A stretch of DNA of 64,000 nt from an uncultured Candidatus Binatia bacterium. Its GTDB lineage: Bacteria; Desulfobacterota; Binatia; Bin18. The stretch covers positions 42,435-106,434 of the forward strand of contig CBDCPK010000002.1 of the NCBI GenBank assembly GCA_965220195.1, in the 5' to 3' direction. A program made the position numbers and the translations under genes. The notes below the pieces were generated by a model. The model saw only the letters and a program-made list of their open reading frames with translations. It ran no database searches and was not told the origin of the DNA. Of the stretch, positions 7,394 through 43,602 are shown in pieces. The stretch's first letter is position 1. Every line of letters begins with the position of its first letter.

Positions 7394-7551
7394 GTGATGT
7401 CGCGGCATGTCCTATCCTATTCTATCCCCTCTCGGGAGGGGTGGATTTTTCGGACGGGCGTTCCGGGTACCCACCCCGGCCCTTCGGGCCACTCCTCCTT
7501 GGAGGGGAAGTTTTTCTGTTCGCCTGAGGTGATGCAATAAGGAGAATCCCC

Positions 7552-8517
7552 ATGATGTTCTGGCTCATCGCCATTATCGTAGTCGTCTGTCTGGCCGGGG
7601 TGGGGGCGCTGGTCTTTCGCAGCAGTCGGAATGCCCAGGTTCTGGACCGCCGGCTTGCCAGGGTGCGAACATGGGCTGTGGCCGTCTATGGCGAACCGCA
7701 GAAACGACGCAAACAGCAGGGCGGGAGTGTGTCCCTGCGTCTGGTGTCGCCCGCTCTGTTGAATATCTCGTCCCGGCTGGTGCCGGTCGGGGCAGCCGAG
7801 CGGGCCAAGCTGAAAGATGCGGTCACAAAGGCAGGGTTTCACCGGCCCGACGCCTTGTCGATATTCATGACAGCCAAGCTTGTGGTCATGCTGGCTGGCG
7901 GTGTCCTGCTGGGCTGGCAGCTCTCGGCAGGCCAGTGGCTCGGGGAATATACCTCAACGCCATTCATTCTGATGGCGGGCCTGGGTGGGGCGGTGATAGG
8001 GGGAATTCTGCCTGAGATGTGTTTGGACCGCCTCGGCGCCCGCCGGCAAAGCCGGATGGCTACGGCGCTGCCGGATGCCCTGGACCTGATGACGCTCTGC
8101 CTGGAATCCGGGTTGACTTTTGATCGGACCCTGGCTCGGGTAGCGCGGGAGTTGGAGTCTATGGCGCCCGCCCTGGCCCGTGAGTTCACGCTGTCCGAGG
8201 CGGAACTGCGGCTCGGCGCTGACCGCAAGAATGTGCTGCACGACCTGCACGTGCGGACCGGGGTGGAGGGGCTGCGCGACCTATCCACAACCATTGCCCA
8301 AGGCGAGCGCTACGGGACGCCGTTGTCCCAGTCCATGCGAAATATCGCCCACAGCGAGCGGCAGCAGCGGGCCGCCCGGATTGAGGTCCAGGTGGCGCGG
8401 CTGCCGGTGCTGATGAGCATGCCGATGTTGCTGCTGGTGACGCCGGGGACGCTGCTGCTGGTGGCGGGTCCGGCCTTTGTCTCGACCATGGAGATACTGG
8501 GCAATCTGGGCCAATGA
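7552..8517 (+). CDS. tadC: TadC (type II secretion system F-family inner membrane protein)
   Basis: Second GspF-like membrane protein after tadB. RBS aaggagaat precedes the ATG. Confidence 0.85.
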   Translation: MMFWLIAIIVVVCLAGVGALVFRSSRNAQVLDRRLARVRTWAVAVYGEPQKRRKQQGGSVSLRLVSPALLNISSRLVPVGAAERAKLKDAVTKAGFHRPDALSIFMTAKLVVMLAGGVLLGWQLSAGQWLGEYTSTPFILMAGLGGAVIGGILPEMCLDRLGARRQSRMATALPDALDLMTLCLESGLTFDRTLARVARELESMAPALAREFTLSEAELRLGADRKNVLHDLHVRTGVEGLRDLSTTIAQGERYGTPLSQSMRNIAHSERQQRAARIEVQVARLPVLMSMPMLLLVTPGTLLLVAGPAFVSTMEILGNLGQ

Positions 8518-11295: not shown

Positions 11296-12333
11296 TCAGG
11301 GTAAGAATACATTTTTCAACTGTGAGAGGCTGTTCTTCAGCGGTAAAAAATACAGGTCAAAACAACTGCGGTAGACCGTCTCTTGTCCGTCGCCCAGCCC
11401 AATTTGCAGCTTGCTGTTATCGTTGGGCAGACAGAATGTCCCGAAGACAACATCCCAAACCGGAAATATGAAGGCAAAATTCTTGTCGATGTGGTCGGGA
11501 TGGAAGCTGTGGTGGATTTGGTGATGAGCGGGACACCCGAACACATAAATCCATTTTCCGGGCCATCTGAGCCAAATATGAGAGTGACGCAGATTATATC
11601 CCAAGGAGTTGAACAGGAAAGAAAAAAGAGCGATGCCACAGATCGTCGGCGTTTCAGGGACATACCCGAACCACCACGAAATACACGCTCCTGAGAGCCC
11701 GACTGCGGCTCCATGGCCCAGGGCGTAGAAGATGTTATCTACCGGATGTTCTCTATAGTTTGTCAACGGATGCATGACGGGCGGAGAGTGATGAATTTTG
11801 TGAAATTCCCACAGGAACGGATTTTTATGTTGATACGCGTGTATGGCGTACGCAACAAAGTCGATGAGGAGAACGGCAAAGAGGGCGTAGATAAATTCCA
11901 GCACCCATGGAAATTCGGAGGCCGCCGGGGGTTTCTGGCCGCCTGCGCTCATCAGCCATGCGGAACTTTTCTGAAAGACCATGGTTGAGACGGCTGCCAG
12001 GAGCGCCCCCTCGTACAGAAGCACTCTGAAGGTCTGGTGAAAGAAAAAGTAGCGGACATCAAGCCACGCCGAGGCATGACTCCACACCTCTTTCGGGAAG
12101 AGAAAATGCCAGAGAGCGCTCAGCACGCTGGTGTTCTTGTCTCTTATCCTGGGGAGAGATCGAGAGAAGACAAACAGCGCGAACAGGAGAGACGTGAAAA
12201 GCCAGAGCACAAAAACTCTTTGTTCGGGATTAAACGGATAAATAAGGACGATAACAAACCGTTCAAGGAAAATTTCCCCCAGCGCTGCGATGACGTTAAA
12301 AACGCCGGATAGTGTCTCGTTCACACCGAACAT
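11296..12333 (-). CDS. fatty acid hydroxylase / sterol desaturase superfamily membrane enzyme
   Basis: Histidine boxes HAYQH, HKIHH and HHQIHH in a polytopic protein. GC is clearly lower than in the flanks. Confidence 0.85.
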   Translation of the reverse strand: MFGVNETLSGVFNVIAALGEIFLERFVIVLIYPFNPEQRVFVLWLFTSLLFALFVFSRSLPRIRDKNTSVLSALWHFLFPKEVWSHASAWLDVRYFFFHQTFRVLLYEGALLAAVSTMVFQKSSAWLMSAGGQKPPAASEFPWVLEFIYALFAVLLIDFVAYAIHAYQHKNPFLWEFHKIHHSPPVMHPLTNYREHPVDNIFYALGHGAAVGLSGACISWWFGYVPETPTICGIALFSFLFNSLGYNLRHSHIWLRWPGKWIYVFGCPAHHQIHHSFHPDHIDKNFAFIFPVWDVVFGTFCLPNDNSKLQIGLGDGQETVYRSCFDLYFLPLKNSLSQLKNVFLP

Positions 12334-15212: not shown

Positions 15213-16793
15213 ATGATATTCAGCATTGATCTCCGCTCATTGGCCGTTTTTCGTATGGCTCTTGGCGGACTGTTGCTTGTCGACCTAGCCTCCCGCGCCC
15301 GAGACCTGGGTGCGCATTACACGGACTGGGGGGTGCTGCCGCGCAATGTCCTCATTCCGCATCTGTCGGACCCCTTGCCGTTCTCGGTGCATCTTGTCAG
15401 CGGTTCCGCCTTCGGCCAAGCCCTCATTTTCCTCATCGCCGGCGTCTTTGCGCTGGCACTGCTGGTCGGTTTCCGTACGCCGCTGGTAACGGTGGTCTCA
15501 TGGCTGTTGCTGCTCTCGGTTCAGGCCAGAAATCCCAGGGTGTTGCACGACAGCGACGTGCTGCTGCGGCTCCTCTTGTTCTGGGGGATGTTTGTTCCCT
15601 TAGGGGGGCGCTACTCGCTCGATAGTCTGATCGGGCGGGCCGGGAATGGCGAGTCTCCGCTGCCGACCAGCGTATGTTCGGTGGGGACGGCGGCGCTGCT
15701 GATCCAGGTCTGTCTGGTGTACTGGTGTACGGCGGCCCTGAAATCGTGGGAGGTGTGGTGGGTCGAGGGCAGTGCGGTGTACTATGCTCTCAGTATTGAC
15801 CAAGTTGTCACTCCCTTCGGTCTGTGGGTGCTGGGGTTTCCTGACCTGCTGGTCCTGTTGAGTCGAGCTGTTATCGTACTGGAGTTCCTCGGCTCCTGTC
15901 TGGTATTTGTGCCTTTTTGTACGCCTTGGCTCCGGCTTTTTGTGGTTGGAGCGTTTTTCTGTTTTCACTTCGGGCTGACACTCTGTATGAGCATTGGCCT
16001 TTTTCCGTATATCAGCATGGTCAGTTGGCTCGTGTTCGTACCGGGTCTGGTGTGGGAGCGTGGATTATCCCTGCTTCCGGGAACGGTACGGCGACGCCTC
16101 GTTGCTGCGTCACATGCGAGCAGTGCCGGTCGCGCTTGCCCCTCACTCACAGGCGCGATGCAAGAATGCACCCACCCCGGCCCTTCGGACTACCGAGGGG
16201 ATGGGGTGGGTGCTCTACGCTCGGTGCCGCCGCTTCGGTCTTCTCGTTTGGCTCAGGTGTTGGCGGTGGTTTTCCTGGTCTGCGTTGTGTTGTGGAATCT
16301 GTGTGGTTTTGCGGCGGTGACGCCCTATGTTCGCCCCATTTTTCCGTCTTCCGCCGCCCTTGTTGTCCATCTCCTGCGCCTCGATCAGTACTGGAATATG
16401 TTTTCTCCCTATCCGCCCAAGAAGGATGGCTGGTTTGTCATGCCCGGAACGTTTCAGGATAGAAGCCAGGTCGATCTGTGGACAGGCCAGCGCGTGGTGC
16501 GGTGGGAGAAGCCCCTCAGTATAGCCGCCCAGTATCCCAACGACCGGTGGTGGAAATTCATGGAAAGTATCTATCCGGTAGAACGGGAGCGAGAAGTCGC
16601 GCTTGCCGCCTATGCCGGCTATGTGTGTCGGGATTGGAACGCCCGTCACGATGGCCCGGAGCAACTTGAGATCTTCCAGGTTTTTTATATGGAGGAAACA
16701 ACCCTGCCCGATTATCAATATGTTCCGCCCGAGAAGAAGCTGCTGGGGGAGTATGCCTGCGGCGAGCATTTCAGGACGAACGATGAGAGCTGA
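15213..16793 (+). CDS. HTTM domain (SdpB / vitamin K-dependent gamma-carboxylase-like) membrane protein
   Basis: The N-terminus DLRSLAVFRMALGGLLLVDL plus multiple TM helices match HTTM. Divergent from tetR. Carries an in-frame inverted-repeat insertion at 16168-16213. Confidence 0.8.
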   Translation: MIFSIDLRSLAVFRMALGGLLLVDLASRARDLGAHYTDWGVLPRNVLIPHLSDPLPFSVHLVSGSAFGQALIFLIAGVFALALLVGFRTPLVTVVSWLLLLSVQARNPRVLHDSDVLLRLLLFWGMFVPLGGRYSLDSLIGRAGNGESPLPTSVCSVGTAALLIQVCLVYWCTAALKSWEVWWVEGSAVYYALSIDQVVTPFGLWVLGFPDLLVLLSRAVIVLEFLGSCLVFVPFCTPWLRLFVVGAFFCFHFGLTLCMSIGLFPYISMVSWLVFVPGLVWERGLSLLPGTVRRRLVAASHASSAGRACPSLTGAMQECTHPGPSDYRGDGVGALRSVPPLRSSRLAQVLAVVFLVCVVLWNLCGFAAVTPYVRPIFPSSAALVVHLLRLDQYWNMFSPYPPKKDGWFVMPGTFQDRSQVDLWTGQRVVRWEKPLSIAAQYPNDRWWKFMESIYPVEREREVALAAYAGYVCRDWNARHDGPEQLEIFQVFYMEETTLPDYQYVPPEKKLLGEYACGEHFRTNDES

Positions 16794-30146: not shown

Positions 30147-30890
30147 TCAACTCCTGATCCCACTCCGACGACAGACGTGGTTGAGCCGCTGCTCAAAATA
30201 TTTGCGAAAGGCGTCGTTTTCGGTATAGGCCGCCGGCTCTGCCCAGATCGCTCCTAAACGTCCGACCAACCCGGCAATCCAGTCTGCTGCCTGGATTGTT
30301 TGATAGCGATGGCTTTCCAAGTGGAAAGGCATCTCGATGAGGTGACGCCGTTGCTCGGTTTGTCCGTACATACTTTGGGCGGCGCGGGTGATGAGATTCT
30401 CGCGCTGTGTATGTTCGTCGAGGATCAAAAGGAAATTGTTTGGCGGCCAACAGTCTGCGGCGCAGAACTCATCAATCCGCTTGATCGCTTCGAGAAACAC
30501 CCGCTCGTAGAGCCTGTTAGGATAGTGCGCGGCGGGGGGTGCGGTCTTTTTGATTCCCACATAGAAGATGAAGCCGCCCAGGCGTTCAATTTTATTGAAG
30601 AGCCGATGCGTGAAGTGCCTCAGTTCTGGATACCTCAGGACGTTTCTCACCGTGTAGAGGCTGCTCCCCTTCTTCTCCCAGAAGGCGGGGTGTTTCCCTG
30701 ACCGCTGGATTTCTGCATCAAGGAGCTGGCATTTGCGTTGGAAGAACCACGTCCCGAAGCCGCGGACTTCCTCCGCAGGGAGGACGAATCCGGCGAATCC
30801 GAAAACCGGGCTGGTACGGTGCTTCGGGTCATCTTTGCTGACGTACGGCCCGATATGCCCAAATTCATCCAGATAGGCGAGATACGTCAC
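30147..30890 (-). CDS. DUF3800 domain protein
   Basis: N-terminal YLDEFGH motif and C-terminal QTIQAADWIAG motif, characteristic of DUF3800. Confidence 0.8.
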   Translation of the reverse strand: MTYLAYLDEFGHIGPYVSKDDPKHRTSPVFGFAGFVLPAEEVRGFGTWFFQRKCQLLDAEIQRSGKHPAFWEKKGSSLYTVRNVLRYPELRHFTHRLFNKIERLGGFIFYVGIKKTAPPAAHYPNRLYERVFLEAIKRIDEFCAADCWPPNNFLLILDEHTQRENLITRAAQSMYGQTEQRRHLIEMPFHLESHRYQTIQAADWIAGLVGRLGAIWAEPAAYTENDAFRKYFEQRLNHVCRRSGIRS

Positions 30891-31597: not shown

Positions 31598-31930
31598 CTA
31601 CGTGATGATGGCGGCGAGGCGGGCCAGCACCTCATCCATGATCGGCTCCGGGACGGTTTCGAGGCGTTTCCCATGCCGGGCAGCGAGGTCGAGGACGCGC
31701 GGCTGGTCGCAGCGGATCACGCCCCTCGTGCGGGTGCCCGCGGCTTCGAGGGACACCGCGAACCCGCGCCGGCGCGCGAAGCTCCCACCGGTGGTGATGG
31801 GCAGGACCACGGGCGTCCCGGTCAATGCGTTGAACGCGGCCGGGGACACGATCACGACCGGCCGGGTCCCTTGTTGTTCATGGCCGGCCGTGGGATCGAG
31901 GCTGACGAGCCAGATGTCGCCCTGCTGCAT
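31598..31930 (-). CDS. mazF: MazF/PemK-family type II toxin endoribonuclease
   Basis: GDIWLVSLDPTAGHEQQGTRPVVIVS...PITT... is the canonical PemK fold signature. Its start overlaps the antitoxin stop. Confidence 0.9.
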   Translation of the reverse strand: MQQGDIWLVSLDPTAGHEQQGTRPVVIVSPAAFNALTGTPVVLPITTGGSFARRRGFAVSLEAAGTRTRGVIRCDQPRVLDLAARHGKRLETVPEPIMDEVLARLAAIIT

Positions 31931-32193
31931 TACAACAGTTCGTGGCCGACCGGCTTCGCATCAAGCCAAGCGCGATCTTCGGCCGCCGCGGGGGCGGTCT
32001 CGTCGCACTGGGCCAGCAACTCATCAAGCGAGTACCGTGGCCGGGGCCTGGGCGTCACCACCAAGCGGCCGTCCTCAATGCGGATCTCCACTCTGGCCCC
32101 GACCCCGAGCTGCAGGAGCTTCAGCAGGGCCGGGGGCACGGCGAGCATGACGGACCCGCCCACCTTGCGCAGATTCGTGGTATGCATGAACAC
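31930..32193 (-). CDS. mazE: MazE/PemI AbrB-type antitoxin
   Basis: The SpoVT/AbrB-like N-terminus LRKVGGSVMLAVPPALLKLLQL lies immediately upstream of mazF. Confidence 0.85.
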   Translation of the reverse strand: MFMHTTNLRKVGGSVMLAVPPALLKLLQLGVGARVEIRIEDGRLVVTPRPRPRYSLDELLAQCDETAPAAAEDRAWLDAKPVGHELL

Positions 32194-32345
32194 CTCTCAC
32201 ATTCTATTGAAATATAATAAAGGGTGACTCGCAGCGCAAGGTTGGGTCCTGTCCTCATGAGGACAAACCGACTCTGAAATGAGGACAAATCCCTGAAACG
32301 AGGACAACCCTACTCAAATTAGGACAGGACCCCTGTGTTCGTTTC

Positions 32346-33434
32346 CTATCCATGACCATGATCGTCGTCATCATCATGGCCATGGTCGTGGTCATGCCCG
32401 TCATCCCCATCATGGCCGACAAAACCGGAGGGAACGAGCGCTCCGTCGAGCACCCAATTTCGAATGGTCTCCATCTCCTCATCGGACAACGGCGGCATAC
32501 CCCGAGGCATGCGCCTGCCACGGGTGGGTTCGTCCACGGCTATTTTCTCGACAAGATAGCTCTCATCCGGACGACCCGGATTGATCAGCAGGGTGCCATC
32601 AGAGAGCTGCCCACTTCTGGCGGCGATGGTAGTGCGTGGCATATGCCCTTCGGCCAAATCCAGGTTCGCGACGGGATGGCCCTCCTCGTTCTCGCTCGAA
32701 TGGCAGGGAAGACAACGCGCGTTGAAAATTGCCTGCACCGCGTCCAGGGTGGCTCCAGTTGTTGCGTCCTCGTTATATGCCTCGACGATACCGGTGTTTT
32801 GGGTGGGCAGGGCATAATCCACCCGCAGATTGGTTGTGCCCCCCACTCTTGTAAGCAGCACCTTCGAGGATTCGTCTGTCTCAGTCCTTGTCATGGTCCT
32901 CCCGACCCGGAACAGCGACCACGGATGCTTAACCCCAGTTGTTGCGTTCACAATGAGTATCTGGTCGTTGTGCACATCTACGCCCGTCCAGGAATCCTCG
33001 AAGCTGAAGGCTTCGTTAAATTCGACGTTCCCAGGCGTGGCAACCGTAACGGTATGCTCAAGAATAACCGGTTCGCAGCCTTCAGCCTGAATCTCGACGC
33101 CAACGATATGCTCCCCAGCACCCAGGTGGGCATAGTTGATCACGCCGGAATAACTTGTATTGAGGGGAGCGCCCTCTACTCCCTGCTGCACGTCTTCCCG
33201 TGGACCACAGCACGGCAGGGGGTAGTCGTGTTGAGTGGTCCCATCTACCCGGAGATAAACTGATACGGGCGCATCATTGGTCGCAAAGGCCCAGCCATGG
33301 ATCGTTTCGATCCCAGCGACACCGGTCTTGTCGGCCGGGCTGTCCAAAAACGCCGTAATGGTGTCTGCACGCCCTGCCGATGCGGTCAAAATAAGCATAG
33401 CGAGGACGACTGTCAGGATTTGGTATTTTTTCAT
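32346..33434 (-). CDS. secreted protein: divergent GWxF domain, cytochrome-c-type (CxxCH, planctomycete cytochrome C-like) domain, His/Asp-rich tail
   Basis: ATG at 33434 follows aaggaggg. Signal peptide MKKYQILTVVLAMLILTASAGRA. Heme motif CLPCH with RMPRGMPPLSDEEMETIRNWV. C-terminus HDGDDGHDHDHGHDDDDDHGHG. Confidence 0.75.
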   Translation of the reverse strand: MKKYQILTVVLAMLILTASAGRADTITAFLDSPADKTGVAGIETIHGWAFATNDAPVSVYLRVDGTTQHDYPLPCCGPREDVQQGVEGAPLNTSYSGVINYAHLGAGEHIVGVEIQAEGCEPVILEHTVTVATPGNVEFNEAFSFEDSWTGVDVHNDQILIVNATTGVKHPWSLFRVGRTMTRTETDESSKVLLTRVGGTTNLRVDYALPTQNTGIVEAYNEDATTGATLDAVQAIFNARCLPCHSSENEEGHPVANLDLAEGHMPRTTIAARSGQLSDGTLLINPGRPDESYLVEKIAVDEPTRGRRMPRGMPPLSDEEMETIRNWVLDGALVPSGFVGHDGDDGHDHDHGHDDDDDHGHG

Positions 33435-33833
33435 CGTTCCCCCCTCCTTGCGTAGGCAGCCCGTTCTCGCGAACTTGTCATTTAGAGAAATTATTGGGAT
33501 TATATACCAAAATGCCTTCCTACCTCCCCTGCCATGCAATAAACAATAGCAGGCCCATAGCCATGCAGGATAGGACAATGCAGAGACCAGCCAGGATAAG
33601 CAGGATCGTCACACGGTCTTCTCTTGAGAGTCTTCCTCTTCTTTTAGATAACGTTGGATGAGCCGTTCAATGTGGGCGGCTGTAATAGCGACTCGTCTGT
33701 CCTGCTGTTGGTGGGCTGCTTGCGTAAAGTACTCCAGCGCTCGTTGCACTAGATCATCTTCATCTTCACAAACGCGGGGAAGGTGAGCGGAGGTTCCTGC
33801 ATTTTCTTCATGTGATTTTACATACTCTTCGTT

Positions 33834-36485
33834 TCAGAACGAGTACGACGCCCGGAAGTAGTAGAAGCCGCCGTTGTATCCATACGGCGAGGCCACCGGA
33901 TACTTCTGGCCGGCATCATATTCATTCCGATGCACCCGTTTGACCTTGGTCGGATACGTGTCTAACAGGTTGTCCACACCGGCCGCTACGACGAGCCCGA
34001 AATCGAACAGGTATGACGCTTCCAGGTCGAGCAACGCACGGGCACGGGCATAGATAGGCGGGTTGATCTTGTAGTCCTGGTACGGCTCGGTGAAACCGTC
34101 GTAGTAATGCAGCCGGGAGAGGAACCGCCACGGTCCCCAAGTGTGGTCCGCCATCAGCGAGAAGCGGAACTCCGGCTCGATATCTTCGACCTGCACTTTG
34201 CGCACCGAGTTGATGACCTGCGAGTTGATGGAATCGAGATTGAGGTTGGTGTCGTTCCAGTTGCCGGCAAACGTCAACATGGTCCTGCCGATGCTGCCGC
34301 CGAACAACTCCAGCGGATAGGTCGCCACGAGGTCAATGCCTTGCGTATACGTTTCGAACGCATTGGTGAAAAACCGCACGCTTCGCACGCGACTCGCATC
34401 GACATTCATAGCGGCCAGGGCGGCGATGTCTTCAGGGGTAATCCCTTGGGCGCTGGTCAACCCGATCCGGTTTCTCACTTCTATATTGTAATAGTCCAGG
34501 GTGACGGTCAGGGCATCAAGGGTGAGCACTGTCCCGACTGAAAAAGACATGGAAGTCTCCGGTGTCAGCGGCTTGGCCCCCTTCCGGAGCGCAATCGGGT
34601 GGCTGCCTGGAAGCGTTGGTGTTTCGACCAGTTGGTTTGTTTCAGGGTCGAAGTTGTAGGTCGTGTCCCGGTAGTTTGCCTGTCCCACGGTCGGGGCACG
34701 AAATCCGGTCCCGATTGACCCGCGTAGCGCCAGATATTCCTCAAGCAGGCTCCAGCGGGCAGCGAGCTTGCCGTCCAGGGACTCGCCGATGCCTTCATGG
34801 TGCTCGAAGCGGCCCGCGGCGGTGACCAGTACGTTCTCAATGACGTCGGCTTCGAGGTCGAGATACGCGCCGAAGCTGCCCCGTTCGGCCTCCACCGCAT
34901 TCTCCGGGCGGATAGCCGGATACGCTTGGCCGCCTACGCTGAACCCCTGTGCGGCGAGGCCACGCGCTTTCCGTTGCCCATCACATTCTCCGTTGTCATC
35001 AGAACACCAGCCGTCCTTATCACCGGATTCGATCTCATACTCTTCCTCGCGGTACTCCAGTCCGAAGGCGATGTTCAGCGGGGAGTAGAAGACACCAATG
35101 TCGAACAGCCTGGAGAAATCCAGATTGAATATCTTGTCCCGCTGCTCGTAGGCACGGCCGAAGTATCCCGTCGGCATGGCGTCTTTGAGGCGGAGCAGTT
35201 GCGGGTTGACGGTGTTCCATATGTAGTACGTGGTTCTGTGCTGGCCGAACGCGGCACTCATGTCGTAGTTCCAGCCGTCGAGCAGCGCGGAAGCGCTCTG
35301 CAACGTCCCGCGCAGGCCGAAGGTGATGCCCCAGTCTTCCACGCCGCCGCGCATCCGCGGCGTGAACCCGCCCGGAAGATTCTGGGCCAACGCGTAACAG
35401 TCCGGGTTGCCCTCCAGCGGGGCCAGTGCGGCCCGGCCGTTTTGCGTATAATCGCGCGCCAGGATTGTCGGGCAGTTGCCTGTGCCGTCGGGTGTCAGGT
35501 CGGCGACCTTGAGCCGTTCGCCGTCCAGATAGACCCCGGTCGTACCGGTCGGCGCGGACGGATGCGGGCCTCGGAAATACCACGAGTCCAGAATCTGGCG
35601 TTCCGCCCAGTTGCCGAAGGCATAGGCATGGTGAGAGTCGCTGAGGTCGAGGCCGAAGTTACCGAAAAATTTATAGTCGTACGGCACATCCGGTGCGCCC
35701 CACACCATGGCACGATGCTTGACGGGAAGCCCGGCGTTTCTCAACGGCTTTTCGATATCGAGTTCAGAGCTGCGGTCGGTCGAGTCGGCGTTGGTGAACT
35801 CGAAGCTGAGGTTAGCGAAGCCGGCGTCAGTCAGCGGCAGGCCGATGTTGGCCGCGGTGCTCACCTGGTCGCCGTCACCCTGATAATACTGGCCCCAGCG
35901 GGCTTCGACCGTACCGCCCTCGGGCGCATCGCGCAGCACGAAGTTCATGACCCCGGCCACCGCGTCGGAGCCGTACTGGGCACCCGCCCCGTCGCGCAGT
36001 ACCTCAACCCGTTTGAGGGCAATGGACGGGATGGAGCGGATATCAACCCCGTGCGCCCCTTGGGCCTGCCCAAAGGTGAAGATGCTGATCGCTGACGAGC
36101 GGTGGCGGCGTTTGCCATTGACCAGCACCAGGGTCGAGTCCGGCGGCAGGCCGCGCAGCTTGGCCGGGCGGACCAGCGCGTTAGCGTCGCCGATGGCGTG
36201 CTGAGAGATATTATAGGACGGAACGGTGGCGGCCAGCAGGTTGTTCAGGTCGCGGACGCCGTAATGCTGGAAGTTTTCGCCGTCAATGACGTCCACCGGC
36301 ACGGGCGAATCCGCGGCCGAGCGGCCGGGTGCCCGGGAGCCGACCACGCGGAGGTCTTCAAGCCCGAAGATGGATTCTTCCGGCGTCCCTTCCTGACCGG
36401 CCTCCTGCGCGCCGGCTGGCAGTGCGCCTATCAAGACCAGGAACGCCACCAGGAGAGCACATTGGCACTGTATCAATTGCTTCAT
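33834..36485 (-). CDS. TonB-dependent receptor
   Basis: Signal peptide from the ATG at 36485. Plug-domain motifs (VLVNGKR, RVEVLRDGAGAQYGSDAVAGVMNFVL). Beta-barrel ending YYFRASYSF. Confidence 0.9.
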   Translation of the reverse strand: MKQLIQCQCALLVAFLVLIGALPAGAQEAGQEGTPEESIFGLEDLRVVGSRAPGRSAADSPVPVDVIDGENFQHYGVRDLNNLLAATVPSYNISQHAIGDANALVRPAKLRGLPPDSTLVLVNGKRRHRSSAISIFTFGQAQGAHGVDIRSIPSIALKRVEVLRDGAGAQYGSDAVAGVMNFVLRDAPEGGTVEARWGQYYQGDGDQVSTAANIGLPLTDAGFANLSFEFTNADSTDRSSELDIEKPLRNAGLPVKHRAMVWGAPDVPYDYKFFGNFGLDLSDSHHAYAFGNWAERQILDSWYFRGPHPSAPTGTTGVYLDGERLKVADLTPDGTGNCPTILARDYTQNGRAALAPLEGNPDCYALAQNLPGGFTPRMRGGVEDWGITFGLRGTLQSASALLDGWNYDMSAAFGQHRTTYYIWNTVNPQLLRLKDAMPTGYFGRAYEQRDKIFNLDFSRLFDIGVFYSPLNIAFGLEYREEEYEIESGDKDGWCSDDNGECDGQRKARGLAAQGFSVGGQAYPAIRPENAVEAERGSFGAYLDLEADVIENVLVTAAGRFEHHEGIGESLDGKLAARWSLLEEYLALRGSIGTGFRAPTVGQANYRDTTYNFDPETNQLVETPTLPGSHPIALRKGAKPLTPETSMSFSVGTVLTLDALTVTLDYYNIEVRNRIGLTSAQGITPEDIAALAAMNVDASRVRSVRFFTNAFETYTQGIDLVATYPLELFGGSIGRTMLTFAGNWNDTNLNLDSINSQVINSVRKVQVEDIEPEFRFSLMADHTWGPWRFLSRLHYYDGFTEPYQDYKINPPIYARARALLDLEASYLFDFGLVVAAGVDNLLDTYPTKVKRVHRNEYDAGQKYPVASPYGYNGGFYYFRASYSF

Positions 36486-36677
36486 TTTGCTTTCCCTTTT
36501 TGTCGTGTCATGCAGAGGGCCTTCTCGGGCAGCTTGGGCTTGGAGCCGCATCCCCTTGGCCAAATGCTCCACACACCGTCCTATTGCTCTCTGGGCCACG
36601 GCCTGATCCTCGGTGCGGGCGATGTATAACGCCGCTCCGGCGTAGGCCCCAAACCACAACCGGCTTCCCACCCAAAC

Positions 36678-37022
36678 TCAGCACGTCAGGGAGAAGCTCA
36701 ACTCACCCGCGTTCGCTCCGGCCGTCACTGTGACCTCTGTCGGACCGCCGTAGCACTGTTGGGAGATATTGTAGAGCGACTGGGTAGCGCCCGCCACCCG
36801 CACTGCGAGGTTCCCGCTACACGTGAAACTTTGTGTCGTGCCATTCGCCACATTGCTATATGAGCTGTCCCCGGTACACTTGGCCTCGATTGTACCGCCG
36901 GAAGAGTTAATGAGATCGTAAACCGCATCCGAAGATGCATCCGATGCCAAGGCGTACGCCGCGACCAGGCACAGGCCCAGGGTCAGGGCGGCTATCGTGC
37001 CATAGCTGTTCTGCTGCTTCAT
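36678..37022 (-). CDS. small secreted Cys-containing protein P1 (tandem paralog family)
   Basis: Signal peptide ending ALA. Mature region of about 88 aa: DLINSSGGTIEAKCTG...ANGTTQSFTCSG...TVTAG...C. An ~85-bp stretch is identical to P2. Confidence 0.7.
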   Translation of the reverse strand: MKQQNSYGTIAALTLGLCLVAAYALASDASSDAVYDLINSSGGTIEAKCTGDSSYSNVANGTTQSFTCSGNLAVRVAGATQSLYNISQQCYGGPTEVTVTAGANAGELSFSLTC

Positions 37023-37116
37023 TCCTTTGCTCCCTTCGCGGATGTGAGGTGAGAAGGCAAGCCTTCCACCATGCCGGTCCCATTGCCAGGCCAATGTCAA
37101 GGCTTCCCGCCCGAAC

Positions 37117-37443
37117 TCAGCACATCAGGGAGAAGCTCAACTCGCCAGCGCTCTCCCCAGCCGTCACTGTGATCTCGATTGGACCGCCGCGGCACTGTCG
37201 GGAGATGTTGTAGGGCGACTCGCTAGAGCCCGCCACCCGCACTACGAGGTTCCCGCTACACGTGAAACTTTGTGTCGTGCCATTCGCCACATTGCTATAT
37301 GAGCTGTCCCCGGTACACTTGGCCTCGATTGCACCGCCGGAGGAGTTAATGAGATCATAATCCGCTGCCAAGGCGGGCGTAGCGACCAGGCACAGGCCCA
37401 GGGTCAGGGCGGCTATCGTGCCATACCTGTTTTGCTGCTTCAT
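37117..37443 (-). CDS. small secreted Cys-containing protein P2
   Basis: Near-duplicate of P1, with signal peptide MKQQNRYGTIAALTLGLCLVATPALA. Confidence 0.7.
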   Translation of the reverse strand: MKQQNRYGTIAALTLGLCLVATPALAADYDLINSSGGAIEAKCTGDSSYSNVANGTTQSFTCSGNLVVRVAGSSESPYNISRQCRGGPIEITVTAGESAGELSFSLMC

Positions 37444-37530
37444 GTTCTTGCCTCCTTATACCGGTCTGTGAATTGCCGACTCCCCTTCCGGGCTGATTTC
37501 AAGGGAAGATCGACACAGCGGCAGGTCAGC

Positions 37531-37869
37531 TTACGATGATACACATTGGTGAGCCAGGCTCAGCGTGTCGGCGCTATCTCCCGCCGTCACCGTGGTCGCC
37601 TTTATTTCATTGCTTCCGCAATCATTCGGAATTTCATATTCAGGGTTGCCTCCCGGTCGCTGTACAAAGGCCGTGCCACCGCTGCACGAGTAATCTTTCG
37701 TCTCGCCGTTCGCCGGCCAGTCGGTGATATTCGTCGTGGAACAATTCACCTTGACGCTATCGCCGGAAGAGTTGATGATGCGGAAGTCCCAGGCCAGCGC
37801 GTGCGCCGCGACCAGACACAGGCCAACGGTCAGGCCGGTTATGGTGAAGGAACCACTTCGCTTACGCAT
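37531..37869 (-). CDS. small secreted Cys-containing protein P3
   Basis: Same architecture: WDFRIINSSGDSVKVNCS...ANGETKDYSCSG...TVTAGDSADTLSLAHQC. Confidence 0.65.
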   Translation of the reverse strand: MRKRSGSFTITGLTVGLCLVAAHALAWDFRIINSSGDSVKVNCSTTNITDWPANGETKDYSCSGGTAFVQRPGGNPEYEIPNDCGSNEIKATTVTAGDSADTLSLAHQCVSS

Positions 37870-37924
37870 AACGTTTCTCCTTTCGTCTCTGGACGTTGAA
37901 GGCTGAGGTCACACATCTCCCCGC

Positions 37925-38245
37925 TCAAAATGTAGACTCCTCTGATATGCATTGGTGAGCTAGGTTCAGTGTGTCGGCGCTATCTCCCGCTGTCACCGTG
38001 GTCGCTGGAATGTCATATTGAGAGCTGCTTCCCGGCCGCTGTACGGAGGCCGTACCGCTACATGAGTAAAGTTGTGTCGTGCCATTCGCCTGCGAGGTGG
38101 TGATAGTCGCCGTCGAACAATTCACCTTGACGGTATCGCCGGAAGAGTTGGTGACGCGGAGGTCCCATGCCAAGGCGTGCGTCGCGACCAGACACAGGCT
38201 CACGGTCAGGAGGGCTATCGTTCTCCTCTTGGTCTGCCTCTTCAT
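37925..38245 (-). CDS. small secreted Cys-containing protein P4
   Basis: WDLRVTNSSGDTVKVNCS...ANGTTQLYSCSG...TVTAGDSADTLNLAHQC. First gene of the minus-strand cluster. Confidence 0.65.
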   Translation of the reverse strand: MKRQTKRRTIALLTVSLCLVATHALAWDLRVTNSSGDTVKVNCSTATITTSQANGTTQLYSCSGTASVQRPGSSSQYDIPATTVTAGDSADTLNLAHQCISEESTF

Positions 38246-38450
38246 TCCTTTATTCCTTTGCTCCTTTCGTGGATGTGGGGTGAGAAGGATATCTGCCCCG
38301 CCATATCAACCCCATTCCAGGCTAATGTCAAGGCTCAAAGTGGCCCGGTAGCGTGGCCGAACGGTCGCCCACCTTTTTCCGGGTGAGGCTTATACCGCCA
38401 CAGGAAAAAAGATATAATAGTTGTCAAACACCTCCTGTCCTTCGAACGTT

Positions 38451-39923
38451 ATGAGGATTGTGTGCATTTTTCTGGTTGGCTTGATGGCTGTCTTGACGGC
38501 GCCGGCAACGCGTAGCGACCAATCCGCCGCCCCACGTCTGGAACTGACCCTGGCCGAGAGTGTCGCCCTGGCCCTGCAGAACAACCGCCACCTTTCTCAG
38601 GTGCGCCTTGACCGCGTTGTGCAGAAGTTCGACCTCAGAGTTGCCGAGGACGAGTTCTGGCCGGACATCGATATCGGTTCCGCCCTGGATTACGGCATCG
38701 CCTGGGAGGCTGACCAGAGAAGACTGGAGTATGATGAAAGCGCCTTCCTCTTCCCCGTGCTGACGGTCCGCCTGCCCACGGGCGGTGCTTTCGCTGTCGG
38801 CTTGAACAGTGCTTTCCGGGACTTTGGCACGCAAGACGCCTACACGGCCTCGCCGTCACTCCATTTTGTCCAGCCCTTGCTGAAAGGCGGCGGCGTCGAG
38901 GTTGCAACCGCCAACTTGCGGAACGCCCGTCGCCAGGAAGAAATTCATGTCCTGTCGTTCAAGGCGGCGGTTATTGGCATCGTCAACTCGGTCGTCTCCG
39001 CCTACCGGAGCTTTATCCAGGCGCAACGGCAGGTTGAGATCAGCGCCCGCTCTTTGCAGCGGGCGCGGGAGCAACTGGACGTGAATCGACTCCTGATTCA
39101 GACCGGCAGAATGGCCGAGAATGACGCGGTGCAGACCGAGGCCGATATCGCCACTCGGGAACTGAATCTGACGGAAACCCAAAACCGCCTGGATACCGCC
39201 CGGCTCAGCCTGATCAACGTCCTGGACATTGATAGTCGGACGCAGATCGAACCAACGGAAGCCTTGACCATCGCTCCGGTGTCGCCCGACCTGTCCCACA
39301 GCCTGGACACCGCGTTTGCCCGTCGCCCGGACTATCTCCAAGCGCTGCTGTTTCTCGAAAACATCAAGACGAATGTCATGGTGGCGGAGAACAACCGCTT
39401 GTGGGACTTGTCTCTTGGCGCTTCTGCCTCTGCCAGCGGCAGCCAGCAATCATTTCGGGGGACGCTGGGGAGCGCGCTGGGCGATGTCGTTAATAGAGGG
39501 GTCTATGGAGTCGGGTTGGAGCTGAGTATTCCCTTTTATGGGGATTTGACCCGGCAGCAGCGCTATGTCAGGGCCCACACCGCCCTGCAGCAGGCCGAAC
39601 ACAGTCTGGCAGAACTCCGTCAGAACATCGACATTGAGGTGCGCAACGCGGTGCGGGATGTCGAAGTCCGCCTGCGCCAAGTCGAGTTGGCGCAACGGGC
39701 GCGGGAGCTGGCCGAGCAGAAGATTGGCATCGAACGGGAAAAGCTGACCGTGGGCTTGTCCACGAATTTTCAACTGGTCGTCTTTGAGGATGACCTGGTC
39801 AATGCCCAGAATCGCGAAGTGCGCGCCATCATTACCTATCTCAACGCGCTGACGGTGTTCGACCGGACACTGGGTACAACCCTGGAGACGTGGAAGATCG
39901 ACATCACCAGGCTGGAACAATAA
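38451..39923 (+). CDS. TolC-family outer membrane efflux protein
   Basis: Signal peptide, then LTLAESVALALQNNRHL and two repeated OEP halves. Confidence 0.85.
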   Translation: MRIVCIFLVGLMAVLTAPATRSDQSAAPRLELTLAESVALALQNNRHLSQVRLDRVVQKFDLRVAEDEFWPDIDIGSALDYGIAWEADQRRLEYDESAFLFPVLTVRLPTGGAFAVGLNSAFRDFGTQDAYTASPSLHFVQPLLKGGGVEVATANLRNARRQEEIHVLSFKAAVIGIVNSVVSAYRSFIQAQRQVEISARSLQRAREQLDVNRLLIQTGRMAENDAVQTEADIATRELNLTETQNRLDTARLSLINVLDIDSRTQIEPTEALTIAPVSPDLSHSLDTAFARRPDYLQALLFLENIKTNVMVAENNRLWDLSLGASASASGSQQSFRGTLGSALGDVVNRGVYGVGLELSIPFYGDLTRQQRYVRAHTALQQAEHSLAELRQNIDIEVRNAVRDVEVRLRQVELAQRARELAEQKIGIEREKLTVGLSTNFQLVVFEDDLVNAQNREVRAIITYLNALTVFDRTLGTTLETWKIDITRLEQ

Positions 39924-41695
39924 TGGACCGGGATGCCGTCATCTATAAAAATGTCCTGGACAATATGAGTGGCGGAGTCATGACGGTCGGCCTGGACGGA
40001 CGCATCCTGACCTTCAACCCGGCGGCCGCCCGGATACTGGGACTCGCCCGGGACGAGGTTCTCGACCACGTCTTGGCCGAAGTCTTGATGGCCATTGAGG
40101 GCCTGGACGCGTTCTTTCAGGCCCTCATGGATGCCGTCTATGAGGCCGATGTTGAACACCAGCGCGTGGTCGAAGTGCAGCACGGCGGCAAGACCGTTTC
40201 CCTGGCAATGACCTCCTCCTATCTCCAATCGGTCCGGGACGGTGAGGTCCAGCGCATCGGCGTCATTGCCATATTTAACGATATTACGGAACTCAAGGAC
40301 TTGCGCGAGGCCGAGCTGCGAATGGCGGAAACGGCCAAGGCACAACACGCCGAACTCCAGGATGCCTACCGCCGGATTGAAGAAAACAACCAGGCCCTCC
40401 GTACGGCCACACAGCGGGAACGCGTCGCTGCATTGGGTGTCGTCGTCCTGTTTCTGGCAGTTGGGCTGTACGTCTGGCAAACGGACCCTGGGCCGGACTT
40501 CAGCGAGCCGTCGTTGCCGGTGTCGCCCGAGACGGTGGTTCCCGCGGACCTGCGGACCGTGGTGGTGACACCGCAACGGCTGACCTCCACGGTCATCCTG
40601 TCCGGCCATCTGGTCCCGCGCCGGGAAGTTCAGGTGACCAGCCCGCTGACCGGCACGGTGGCGGCCCTGCATTTTCAGTACGGGGAGCGAGTCACCCATG
40701 GGCAACGCCTGGTCGAGCTGGATACGACTGAGGCCGAGAAAAAGTATCGCGAGGCCCAAGCCGCGTATATTAAAGCCCGGCTGCGTTTTCACGAGCTTGA
40801 AAATTGGGAAAACAGCGTGGAGGTCGTCCGCGCTCGTCGAACGCTCAATCGGACCAGGCGGCAGCTCGAAACCCACCAGAACAAGCGGGACGAAACCGCC
40901 TTCCTGTTGGAAAAAGGCATTATCCCGGCCTCGGAACACGAGGCTGCGGAACAGCAGCTCTATAATATGCGTTTGGACTATGAGGCCGTTCAGCAAGACC
41001 TCGAAGCCGTATTGGCCAGGGGCGGAGCCCAGGAAAAGCAGGTCGCCCGGTTGGAGCTCGACAATGCCCGTATCCAGATGCAGTTGATGGAGGACATCCT
41101 GCAAAAATCGCGCGTCAATGCGCCCGTGACCGGAGTCATCCTCCCGCCGCGACAGTCGGAGCAAGACGGACAACGCCTCGTCATCGGCGGAGAGACGCAG
41201 CAGGGAGCCTTGTTGCTGACGGTCGGCGACCTGGATGGCCTGTCGGTTGTGGGAGAGGTGGACGAGGTGGATGTGGCCAAAGTCCGTCTGGGGCAACAGG
41301 TTGCGATCAGCGGCGATGCCTTTCCCGGTGTCGAACTGCGGGGGAGCATTGTCCATGTGTCTTCACAAGCCAGTCAGCCAGAGCAGGGCAGAGAGAACGT
41401 GCCCGTGTTCGAGGTCAGGGCGGTCATCGAGAACCTGAGCGCGGCGCAGCGCCAACAGGTGCGTCTGGGGATGTCGGCCAATCTCGAGGTCGTGGTCCAT
41501 GACAAACCGGACTCGCTGCTCGTTCCCTTGAGTGCGGTACAGGTGCGCAACGGCAAAACGTGGCTGCGCGTCAAGGACCGGGAGACCGGCGCGGTGAAAC
41601 AGATTGAAGTCGATACCGGCGTGACCACCCTGGACGCGGTGGAAATCGTCAACGGACTGCAAGCCGGCGATGAGGTGATGCTGTCCGAGACATGA
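39923..41695 (+). CDS. PAS domain fused to a MacA/HlyD-type periplasmic adaptor
   Basis: TAATG overlap with the tolC-like gene. The N-terminal ~130 aa are PAS-like (LDNMSGGVMTVGLDGRILTFNPAAARILG). TM helix VAALGVVVLFLAVGLYVW. Then an HlyD/biotinyl-lipoyl/beta-barrel adaptor. Confidence 0.8.
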   Translation: MDRDAVIYKNVLDNMSGGVMTVGLDGRILTFNPAAARILGLARDEVLDHVLAEVLMAIEGLDAFFQALMDAVYEADVEHQRVVEVQHGGKTVSLAMTSSYLQSVRDGEVQRIGVIAIFNDITELKDLREAELRMAETAKAQHAELQDAYRRIEENNQALRTATQRERVAALGVVVLFLAVGLYVWQTDPGPDFSEPSLPVSPETVVPADLRTVVVTPQRLTSTVILSGHLVPRREVQVTSPLTGTVAALHFQYGERVTHGQRLVELDTTEAEKKYREAQAAYIKARLRFHELENWENSVEVVRARRTLNRTRRQLETHQNKRDETAFLLEKGIIPASEHEAAEQQLYNMRLDYEAVQQDLEAVLARGGAQEKQVARLELDNARIQMQLMEDILQKSRVNAPVTGVILPPRQSEQDGQRLVIGGETQQGALLLTVGDLDGLSVVGEVDEVDVAKVRLGQQVAISGDAFPGVELRGSIVHVSSQASQPEQGRENVPVFEVRAVIENLSAAQRQQVRLGMSANLEVVVHDKPDSLLVPLSAVQVRNGKTWLRVKDRETGAVKQIEVDTGVTTLDAVEIVNGLQAGDEVMLSET

Positions 41696-41709
41696 GGTGA
41701 GACGACCGG

Positions 41710-42393
41710 ATGTTGCGTCTGGTGGACATTTGCAAGAATTATCGGATCGGCCCGATCAGCGTAGACGTCTTACGGGGCGTCCGTCTTGAGGTGAACCGGG
41801 GCGACCTGCTGTCGATCATGGGGGCTTCGGGCTGCGGCAAATCGACCCTGATGCATATCATCGGTCTGTTGGACCGCCCCACCAGCGGCTCCTACCTGCT
41901 GGAGGGACGCGAGGTCTCGGCGATGGGCGATAACGAACTGTCCACCCTCCGCAACGCCAGCATGGGCTTCGTGTTTCAGTCCTTTCACCTGTTACCGCGC
42001 CTGACGACCCAGGAGAACGTCGGTCTGCCCCTGGTCTACCGGGGGCTGGGAGACACAGAGATCCGGCAGCGCTCGCAAGAGATACTGGAAAAGGTTGGGA
42101 TGCAGGACCGGACCGACCACAAGCCGAGTCAACTCTCCGGTGGACAACAACAGCGGGTGGCCATTGCCCGAGCGCTGGTCGGAGCGCCCCGCCTCCTGCT
42201 GGCCGATGAACCGACCGGAGCCCTGGACCCCCGCACCGGCCGGGAGATCATGCAGATTTTTTCCCGCCTGAACGCCGAGGACGGGCTGACGGTCATTATC
42301 ATCACCCACGACCAGGCGATTGCGCGCCACTGTATGCGGCACACTCGTCTGTCTGACGGGATACTGCATGAGGATGTTCCCCGGCCGGGCTGA
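41710..42393 (+). CDS. ABC transporter ATP-binding protein (MacB/LolD type)
   Basis: Walker A GASGCGKST, signature LSGGQQQRVAIARAL, Walker B LLLADEPTGALD. Confidence 0.95.
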   Translation: MLRLVDICKNYRIGPISVDVLRGVRLEVNRGDLLSIMGASGCGKSTLMHIIGLLDRPTSGSYLLEGREVSAMGDNELSTLRNASMGFVFQSFHLLPRLTTQENVGLPLVYRGLGDTEIRQRSQEILEKVGMQDRTDHKPSQLSGGQQQRVAIARALVGAPRLLLADEPTGALDPRTGREIMQIFSRLNAEDGLTVIIITHDQAIARHCMRHTRLSDGILHEDVPRPG

Positions 42394-42411
42394 CTCGCGA
42401 GGCTCTCTGCC

Positions 42412-43602
42412 ATGCTCCTCAAGACCAATATCAAGGAGGCTGTCAGCAGCCTGTATGCTACGAGACAACGCAGCCTCCTGGCCCTGATCGGCATTATTAT
42501 CGGTATCGGTTCGGTGATTGCGCTGGTCTCGGTCGGCTCGATTGCCAAATTCGAATCGCTCAAGCAATATCGGGAACTGGGGACCGATATCCTGACGATT
42601 CGGAGACTGCACAACAGTGGCCGGGTGCGCCGCCAAGTGTATATCCGCCTGGCAGACGCCCTTGACCTGGCGGACCGGACGCCCTCTATTGTCGCTGCCG
42701 CCCCGTGGACCCAGATATACGGGCCGTTCGTATATGCCGGACAGGAGATATCCCACGGCGAGGTGCTCGGGGTGCGAGCGTCTTTTGCCGACCTGACCAA
42801 GCTGAGCGTCAGCGCCGGTCGGTTTATCTCGGATCTGGACTTCCGACGCTACTACTGCGTCGTTGGCCACGAGGTCGCTCAGGCCATGCGGCAGGCCGGC
42901 GCTACGCGCGTCGTGGGCGACCTTATCAAGCTAGGCGGGCATCCGTACACCGTAGTTGGGGTGCTGCGGCCAACACAGGTGAAGGACGCTCGTTCGTTTA
43001 ATGCGGACCGCGGGGCGTTTGTGCCCATGAGCACGGCGCAGCGCGCGTTTGACAACGCGAACATTGCCTTGGTCATTGCGCGTATGCGACCCGATGTCCA
43101 CCATACGGTGGCCACACGGGAGGTGGAAAGCTATTTCCGTCAGCGGTCAAAAGACTTGGCAATTGAGGTGATCAGCGCCAGACAACTGATCCAGCAGATG
43201 GAAAAGCAGAGTCAACTCTTTACGCTGCTGTTAGGCGTGGTCGGGAGTATTTCGCTCATCGTTGGCGGCATTGGGGTGATGAATGTCATGCTGGTCTCCG
43301 TGACCGAGCGCCGAAAGGAGATCGGTATCCGACGGGCTCTGGGAGCGAAACGCAAGGACATTCAGAGTCAATTTCTGATCGAATCCATCCTGCTGTCCTT
43401 GCTCGGCGGCCTGTTCGGCCTGGGCCTCGGCCTGGGCAGCGCCTATGTCATTTGTCAATTTTCGGGCTGGACCTTCATGCTCTCGGTCCCGGCCATGTTG
43501 CTCGGGGTGGGCGTAGCCTCGGGTGTTGGCATCTTCTTTGGTTTCTACCCAGCCTACCAGGCCGCTCAGCTCAATCCCGTCACCGCTCTACGTGCCCCAT
43601 AG
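42412..43602 (+). CDS. ABC transporter permease (MacB periplasmic domain plus FtsX)
   Basis: N-terminal TM, a large periplasmic domain, and a C-terminal FtsX-like bundle with GGIGVMNVMLVSVTERRKEIGIRRALGA. Confidence 0.9.
   Translation: MLLKTNIKEAVSSLYATRQRSLLALIGIIIGIGSVIALVSVGSIAKFESLKQYRELGTDILTIRRLHNSGRVRRQVYIRLADALDLADRTPSIVAAAPWTQIYGPFVYAGQEISHGEVLGVRASFADLTKLSVSAGRFISDLDFRRYYCVVGHEVAQAMRQAGATRVVGDLIKLGGHPYTVVGVLRPTQVKDARSFNADRGAFVPMSTAQRAFDNANIALVIARMRPDVHHTVATREVESYFRQRSKDLAIEVISARQLIQQMEKQSQLFTLLLGVVGSISLIVGGIGVMNVMLVSVTERRKEIGIRRALGAKRKDIQSQFLIESILLSLLGGLFGLGLGLGSAYVICQFSGWTFMLSVPAMLLGVGVASGVGIFFGFYPAYQAAQLNPVTALRAP

Follow-up and report, generated by a model that had tools for sequence, protein, structure and literature searches.

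A MacB-type exporter with a PAS-fused adaptor and an adjoining array of small Sec-signal proteins in Candidatus Binatia: the array proteins as putative pump cargo

A stretch of 64,000 nt from an uncultured Candidatus Binatia bacterium (hereafter the window, whose numbering is used for all coordinates given without a locus name) carries a tandem array of four genes for small secreted proteins, P1-P4, on the minus strand (36678-38245). An initial annotation, made from the sequence alone, had read the minus-strand gene order as P4, P3, P2, P1, a TonB-dependent receptor (TBDR) and a further secreted protein, and had placed this cluster divergent from a TolC/MacAB-type exporter. The positions of the open reading frames (ORFs) bear out the six-gene order, and the domain content of the plus-strand genes at 38421-43602 confirms the divergent exporter. 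The array, the intergenic region and the exporter consist of the following features.

37925-38245, minus strand: P4, first gene of the array, 106 amino acids (aa), from ORF and alignment; hit by the hidden Markov model (HMM) of the family at E = 6e-28
37531-37869, minus strand: P3, 112 aa with a Sec signal; mature part 86 aa, 9.1 kDa, isoelectric point (pI) 4.3, four Cys
37117-37443, minus strand: P2, 108 aa; mature part 82 aa, 8.4 kDa; predicted by AlphaFold2 as an eight-strand all-beta sandwich
37023-37104, minus strand: segment 5' of P1, a duplicate (85-90% identity) of the stretch preceding P4 (38248-38335)
36678-37022, minus strand: P1, 114 aa, starting with MKQQNSYG; a recent copy of P2
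38246-38420, no strand: divergent intergenic region between P4 and the OEP gene, with blocks shared by seven loci (alignment A4; promoter scan)
38421-39923, plus strand: OEP, TolC-like outer-membrane factor (Pfam OEP, 4e-35); the likely start at 38451 gives 490 aa, as in relatives
39923-41695, plus strand: PAS-fused membrane-fusion protein (PAS-MFP), a MacA/HlyD-type adaptor (Pfam PAS_9, PAS_4, PAS, HlyD_3 and HlyD_D23), whose start overlaps the OEP stop
41710-42393, plus strand: ATP-binding cassette (ABC) ATPase subunit (Pfam ABC_tran, 1e-35), a gene of its own that is not fused to the permease
42412-43602, plus strand: MacB-type permease (Pfam MacB_PCD, 3.7e-32, and FtsX, 4e-22)

Judged by its domains, the exporter at 38421-43602 is a member of the MacB-type tripartite class with all defining parts present. 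The permease combines the MacB periplasmic core with the FtsX C-terminal domain, as expected of a MacB-type (type VII ABC) pump, and the cognate ABC ATPase, the HlyD/MacA adaptor and the TolC-like factor are encoded in the same operon, the order of which is kept in more than 80 loci. The adaptor consists of an N-terminal cytoplasmic PAS domain (residues ∼8-125 of 590, counted from the start at 39923), a DIT motif with a helix, one transmembrane helix and the periplasmic adaptor domains. Its PAS domain is an extra feature that lies outside the definition of MacB-type pumps, and the literature searched yielded no report on MacB together with a PAS domain and a membrane-fusion protein. The ORF beyond the MacB gene had no Pfam match.

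P1-P4 have the lengths (106-114 aa) and the Sec signal ending in ALA that had been described for them. As read from the sequence, each signal peptide has an n-region with K/R, a hydrophobic core LT(L/V)(G/S)LCLVA and an A-x-A site (..ALA); the core is uncharged and A-x-A is nearly invariant, as in cleavable Sec signals. A lipoprotein reading of the Cys within the signal peptide was rejected, since the residue at -1 is L or F and P0004, P0025 and P0033 lack this Cys. The mature domains comprise 80-88 residues (8.3-9.1 kDa), start with W, A, S or G, are acidic (pI 4.05-4.33) and consist to about 45% of Ser, Thr, Gly and Asn. A GGAG-type Shine-Dalgarno sequence precedes each P gene. The proposed motifs INSSG, ANG.T, CSG and TVTAG are all present in the alignment of P1-P4. 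Across the family the invariant N-S-S and N-G-T, as well as the frequent N-I-T and N-I-S, match N-x-S/T sequons.

The four proteins can be aligned over their full length and form two pairs. P1 and P2 share 84% aa identity, while this pair is 40-45% identical to P3 and P4. The identical DNA stretch of ∼85 bp noticed earlier in P1 and P2 has its longest exact match over 87 bp (36806-36892 and 37245-37331) and lies within a repeat that reaches 265 nt at 90% identity, which supports the recent duplication proposed for this pair. In addition, the 82 nt 5' of P1 (repeat families D5 and D6) duplicate the region ahead of P4, and both its TTGACA -35-like box and its Shine-Dalgarno sequence are part of the copy. 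With its P2-like body and P4-like upstream region, P1 thus looks like a mosaic of duplication and gene conversion, and the duplicated TTGACA segment may provide P1 with a promoter of its own inside the array. A sigma-54 promoter sought by eye 5' of P1 and P4 was discarded, its spacing being off by one and not conserved. The designation as Cys proteins holds for the family, in which four Cys are conserved, but P4 of the window retains only three. Compared with L010, L007 and L002 it has a 27-bp in-frame deletion between ACATTCC microhomologies, by which the third Cys was lost; close relatives keep this residue. P4 of the window and P4 of L010 (9066-9413) are 73% identical, whereas every other gene of the two loci is 97-100% identical. 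P4 of L010 is similar to that of L002, which points to recombination at the first gene of the array. In the related locus L001, from a metagenome-assembled genome (MAG), P4 is missing entirely.

The region between P4 and the OEP gene contains conserved blocks, CTAT..TA.CTTTTTT..GTGGCnGTAT near the OEP start and TTGACA, in all seven compared loci including the distant ones. A small palindrome, GTGGgCgaccgttcgGCCAC, is also found there. Together, blocks and palindrome may represent a putative shared operator.

The initial annotation did not recognise the family of the small proteins, and indeed neither Pfam nor NCBIfam has an entry that P1-P4 match above its curated score cut-off. A pilin reading was rejected: the sole match, PilE_C at E = 0.013, is below cut-off and a prepilin leader is lacking. 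A sequence-profile search of the PDB with the family gave nothing below E = 0.1. A word-indexed search of 5.8 billion proteins yielded 26 P-family clusters, and an exhaustive search of 1.84 billion representatives with an HMM of the mature domain yielded 36 matches at E ≤ 1e-3. About 28 of these 36 are proteins of 100-140 aa with the layout of P proteins; the others are long and repetitive, with matches confined to short stretches. All members that could be placed belong to Candidatus Binatia, and the sole match in the genome collection was a Candidatus Binatia MAG with 94-97% identity. P is thus a small orphan family. In an alignment of 27 members the four Cys are invariant or nearly so, as are N-S-S-G, G.T, one Tyr and TVTAG. 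The conserved residues are turn-forming Gly, Ser, Thr and Asn together with the Cys, and this alignment contains neither a conserved metal or heme ligand set nor a conserved His, Met or Tyr ligand set. The AlphaFold2 model of P2, built from 27 sequences, has a predicted local distance difference test (pLDDT) score of 82 and shows an eight-strand all-beta domain that forms a compact sandwich. Foldseek found nothing below E = 1e-3 for it in the PDB; the top matches were the pVHL beta domain, the PepT1 extracellular domain, the AlgF C-terminal domain and cytolysin domain 4 (E ≥ 2e-3, TM-score ∼0.5). The modelled fold is a generic beta-sandwich that provides no functional lead.

Gene neighbourhoods were compared for P-family members close, intermediate and distant to those of the window, with fetched flanks of ∼4-10 kb. 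The contigs of P0041 and P0029 are too short to inform on linkage. Wherever the flank of a P locus was long enough (the window, L001, L002, L004-L011, L013, L016 and L017), the array abuts the operon OEP, PAS-MFP, ABC, MacB. Array and OEP gene diverge in the window, L001, L002 and L004-L011; in L013, L016 and L017 the array is convergent and lies just 3' of the MacB gene. The existence of two layouts indicates that the linkage of array and exporter outlived rearrangement. Arrays comprise 2, 3, 4, 5, 6 or 9 genes, the nine tandem P genes being those of L013. In this locus an inserted T5orf172/MUG113 (GIY-YIG-like) gene (7519-8283) separates the ABC gene of the exporter from its MacB gene. The PAS-MFP is 80-91% identical across the P loci; when the window is compared with L004 or L006, pump proteins are likewise 80-91% identical, while the best P matches reach 38-55%.

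The exporter extends far beyond the P family. Full-length homologues of the PAS-MFP form at least 423 clusters with 37-72% identity. A genome scan that used only a diverse PAS-MFP alignment provided 79 further loci (among L016-L094), from Candidatus Binatia, Alpha- and Gammaproteobacteria, Candidatus Poriferihabitaceae, Candidatus Porisulfidus and others, and the order OEP, PAS-MFP, ABC, MacB is kept in nearly all of them. Small ORFs were called by a signal-peptide heuristic and their mature parts were clustered into families.

P family: 60 members in 17 loci, four Cys
Orphan 6-Cys family ending NC.G.L.VG.C: 51 members in 25 loci of Binatia, Alpha- and Gammaproteobacteria
Proteins with a single Calx-beta domain (Pfam PF03160): 44 members in 23 loci
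Proteins with a CVNH lectin domain (Pfam PF08881): 10 members in 2 loci, as arrays in L047 (2585-5638 and 12925-13995) and L038
Locus-specific arrays: varying numbers of members, one locus each, for example eight 160-aa paralogues in L039

The 6-Cys family, which had no Pfam match, has the motif C..W..S.A...C ... NC.G.L.VG.C and forms tandem arrays of up to 8 genes adjoining the exporter class (L034 1194-4822, L022 5931-7264, L023 12782-14898 and L029 12931-13314). Its range over Binatia, Alpha- and Gammaproteobacteria suggests horizontal spread of the whole system. The eight 160-aa paralogues of L039 (1768-6616) have two Cys and lie beside the PAS-MFP exporter. A further array beside a PAS-MFP exporter, of one of these other types (CVNH, 160-aa two-Cys or Calx-beta), lies at L049 5619-7447.

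Further support for a pairing of exporter and small secreted proteins is provided by their distance from the operon. Small Sec-signal proteins having paralogues or homologues (family-supported) were counted, and unsupported ORFs served as a control. Family-supported ORFs amounted to 4.17 per 10 kb at 0-1.5 kb from the operon and to 0.42 per 10 kb at 6-7.5 kb, an enrichment of ∼10-fold within 1.5 kb, while unsupported candidates remained flat (5.7 and 4.0 per 10 kb, respectively). At least 60 of 91 exporter loci have a family-supported small secreted gene within 1.5 kb.

Unrelated, fast-evolving and copy-number-variable small proteins beside a constant machine are the signature of cargo, not of a machine part. 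By analogy to known systems we consider it reasonably probable that P1-P4 are cargo of the divergently encoded MacB-type tripartite pump. As its sequence suggests, the precursor would cross the inner membrane via Sec and be cut after A-x-A. In the periplasm the acidic domain of 80-88 residues would fold into the modelled eight-strand beta-sandwich, probably stabilised by two disulfides, to which the four conserved Cys point. The MacB permease would then capture the folded protein, and ATP would drive its expulsion via the adaptor and the TolC-like duct, as for STII and dispersin. The cytoplasmic PAS domain, joined to the transmembrane helix by the DIT-motif helix, probably gates the pump on an intracellular signal; PAS domain and DIT helix are a common signalling layout, and on this the proposed control of the pump is based. 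Pump domains, signal features, Cys conservation and linkage are read from sequence and the fold from a model; disulfides, dependence on the pump and direction of transport are what we infer.

Known MacB-type pumps offer close parallels to this route. They have no transmembrane substrate path and pick up their substrates in the periplasm (PMC5985334). In E. coli, MacAB-TolC exports STII, which is Sec-translocated, DsbA-oxidised and has two disulfides (PMC5985334). The window likewise encodes a MacB-type permease, an ABC ATPase, an MFP adaptor and a TolC-like duct, and the P proteins would, like STII, be small ribosomal products with a Sec signal and two disulfides formed in the periplasm. Unlike in MacAB-TolC, ATPase and permease are encoded by separate genes and the adaptor has an N-terminal PAS domain. 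While STII has 48 residues, the P proteins, with 80-88, are about twice this size, all-beta by prediction, acidic, unrelated in sequence and encoded in tandem arrays adjoining the pump. The Aat pump (AatPABCD) of enteroaggregative E. coli exports the 10-kDa dispersin, considered to be near the upper size limit for MacB pumps (PMC5985334). With 8.3-9.1 kDa and a compact model, the mature P proteins lie within the size that the MacB/TolC conduit is thought to pass (up to ∼10 kDa). As in Aat/dispersin (Aap) and Cex/CexE, a dedicated MacB-like pump with a TolC-like duct would serve a Sec-dependent beta-rich family of ∼10 kDa, and as in Aat, ATPase and permease are split. The system of the window nevertheless does not belong to Aat. 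Genes like AatB or AatD are lacking, the four-gene operon is found in more than 80 loci, and the adaptor is fused to a PAS domain. The mature P proteins start with W, A, S or G and have no conserved Gly for acylation, they are acidic whereas dispersin is basic, and no Pfam or Foldseek match connects them to dispersin.

Outside the cell, the P proteins are most likely small binding or coat modules rather than enzymes, a weak inference from their acidic, hydrophilic sandwiches with variable surfaces and from the Calx-beta and CVNH proteins, the sister cargo in the same position.

Several points weigh against a role as cargo. The assignment draws on gene neighbourhood and analogy in uncultured carriers, and the Sec signal and the disulfides are predictions from sequence. 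By the heuristic used, about one third of the exporter loci have no family-supported small secreted protein, several of these having unclustered Cys-rich candidates. The putative Calx-beta and CVNH cargo has a mature mass of ∼14-17 kDa, which is above the size thought to pass the MacB/TolC conduit. Finally, two diverged P loci have paralogous TBDRs of one subfamily in their flanks, and a functional tie is possible.

The last point leads to the genes on the other side of the array. In the initial annotation they had been joined with P1-P4 into one operon, and the P proteins had been viewed as hemophore- or metallophore-like proteins that feed the receptor.

33834-36485, minus strand: TBDR, 883 aa from the likely ATG at 36485; the ORF spans 33834-36671
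32346-33434, minus strand: secreted protein of 362 aa with an Ig-like N-terminal domain, a CLPCH motif and a His/Asp-rich tail

The receptor has the expected domains (Pfam Plug, 3e-18, and TonB_dep_Rec_b-barrel, 1e-30), and no NCBIfam subfamily was assigned to it at cut-off. A common operon is not established: the gap between the P1 stop and the TBDR ATG is 192 nt and that between the TBDR stop and the next start is 400 nt. The CxxCH motif and the tail described for the last gene are present, as CLPCH and HDGDDGHDHDHGHDDDDDHGHG. Its N-terminal domain, previously called a GW-type beta domain, is modelled as a generic Ig/FnIII-like sandwich, which lends no support to that label. Matches to cytochrome c families (Pfam Cytochrom_C and Cytochrome_CBB3) reach 19.2-19.5 bits and stay below the gathering scores of 21.3-27. 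Among 29 homologues, C244 and H245 show a conservation of at least 90%, and the motif region has a pLDDT below 50. The whole model is poor (pLDDT 48) and reliable only in the N-terminal Ig-like domain; its Foldseek matches therefore say little. The family of this protein comprises 64 clusters, mostly of 330-340 aa, and judging from this length and a query coverage of 93-94% most members appear to have no His/Asp tail. The tail differs in length between the window and L010 (13906-15006). Homologues occur as lone genes in unrelated contexts (including L095-L097), one copy is found on the contig of L002, ∼160 kb away from the P array, and of all P loci only the window and L010 have the gene beside the array. 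Beyond the array the gene content varies, with MazEF, RES-Xre, ParA or transposases depending on the locus. In the window a MazE/MazF (PemK) toxin-antitoxin pair (31598-32193) and a DUF3800 gene (30147-30890) lie just beyond the cytochrome-domain gene; other P loci have different toxin-antitoxin or transposase genes on this side, which marks the flank as variable. Both the TBDR and the cytochrome-domain gene adjoin the array in particular lineages only, within a variable stretch that holds many toxin-antitoxin genes. Further away, the window contains Tad/Flp-type pilus assembly genes (4920-8517; one T2SSE ATPase and two T2SSF platform proteins), and a fatty-acid hydroxylase family gene (11296-12333) and an HTTM-domain gene (15213-16793) that are apparently unrelated to the array.

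That the P proteins are secreted to capture a ligand for the downstream TBDR, with the exporter merely releasing them, is unlikely in our view. In its favour, the window, L010, L007 and L001 have a co-oriented TBDR 3' of the array (99% identical in L007 and L010), and in the distant L006 a total of four paralogues from this subfamily (57-75% identity) are distributed over both flanks of the system, so that a facultative link is possible. The layout also mirrors the Has locus (HasR, HasA, HasDEF), which combines a small secreted protein, an exporter of ABC, MFP and outer-membrane factor, and a TBDR. The resemblance does not extend to the components. HasA has no Sec signal, carries a C-terminal type I secretion signal and leaves through a type-1 ABC exporter, whereas the P proteins have Sec signals, adjoin a MacB-type pump and show neither a HasA-like fold nor ligand residues. 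Moreover, the linkage is not conserved: a TBDR adjoins the array in only 2 of ∼8 lineages, the window group and L006, with gaps to the array of 192 nt in the window and 657 nt in L006. No receptor of this subfamily was found in the fetched flanks of L002, L004 (L004/L005), L009, L013, L016 and L017. P arrays lacking this linkage are the kind of evidence that the initial annotation had itself named as refuting its reading. None of the 79 further exporter loci contains a homologue of the window TBDR, this search having covered its homologues rather than TBDRs in general by profile. As outlined above, the conserved positions of the P proteins are turns and Cys, Foldseek returned generic sandwiches with no hemophore or binding-protein match, and the cytochrome-domain gene stands alone elsewhere. 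Within three intergenic regions no Fur- or Zur-like site had fewer than 7 mismatches (7-11 of 18-19 positions), a weak negative because the consensus is that of Proteobacteria, and Rfam detected no riboswitch or small RNA at 32000-38600. Of the initial view, the tandem, duplicated family of Sec-signal Cys proteins beside an exporter stands, while the feeding of the TBDR is not supported.

Alternatively, the P proteins might remain in the periplasm as accessory or substrate-presenting factors of a pump whose substrate is a small molecule or lipid. This would explain the linkage to the pump equally well, and MacB-family pumps also export small molecules and glycolipids (PMC5985334). We regard it as improbable, given that a machine part is expected to be conserved: the small proteins adjoining the exporter belong to unrelated families in different lineages, P proteins evolve far faster than the pump, and their copy number ranges from 2 to 9 with one copy decaying in the window. 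A role as Sec-dependent bacteriocin-like toxins, with the pump for export and/or self-immunity, would be a special case of the cargo model and is quite improbable: tandem, fast-diverging arrays with gene conversion in a mobile-looking region with toxin-antitoxin genes and transposases close by, and the shielding against peptide antibiotics by MacB-family transporters (PMC5985334), are in its favour, but an immunity gene is not apparent, the acidic, hydrophilic P proteins are neither amphipathic nor cationic in character, and the sister systems carry CVNH lectin and Calx-beta binding modules.

What is new here is the P family, the PAS-fused adaptor and the recurrent pairing of pump and small-secreted-module array across phyla. 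Going beyond the window, we tentatively raise the possibility of a new protein secretion class, in which a MacB-type pump with a PAS-sensor adaptor is dedicated to arrays of Sec-delivered, disulfide-rich binding modules that act on the host matrix or on neighbouring cells. This class would comprise the systems of Candidatus Binatia, Alpha- and Gammaproteobacteria and other MAGs, with P, 6-Cys, Calx-beta and CVNH proteins as modules. Binatota are known sponge associates (PMC9999580), Poriferihabitaceae and Porisulfidus are named in sponge genome notes, and many of the carrier MAGs appear to be sponge-associated. The carriers are largely uncultured and apparently host-associated, and the putative cargo includes lectin and Calx-beta modules, so that the small proteins can be regarded as candidate factors in symbiosis or in surface interactions. 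Although its basis is entirely comparative genomics, the system is coherent, amenable to experiment and apparently new to the literature, and the P family gains a testable functional context in place of the label 'hypothetical protein'. If the P proteins and their counterparts are indeed cargo, the PAS domain on the adaptor would offer an inbuilt means of control, and MacB pumps, known as exporters of drugs and toxins with very few protein clients, would in addition form the core of a widespread two-step protein secretion with fast-evolving cargo repertoires.

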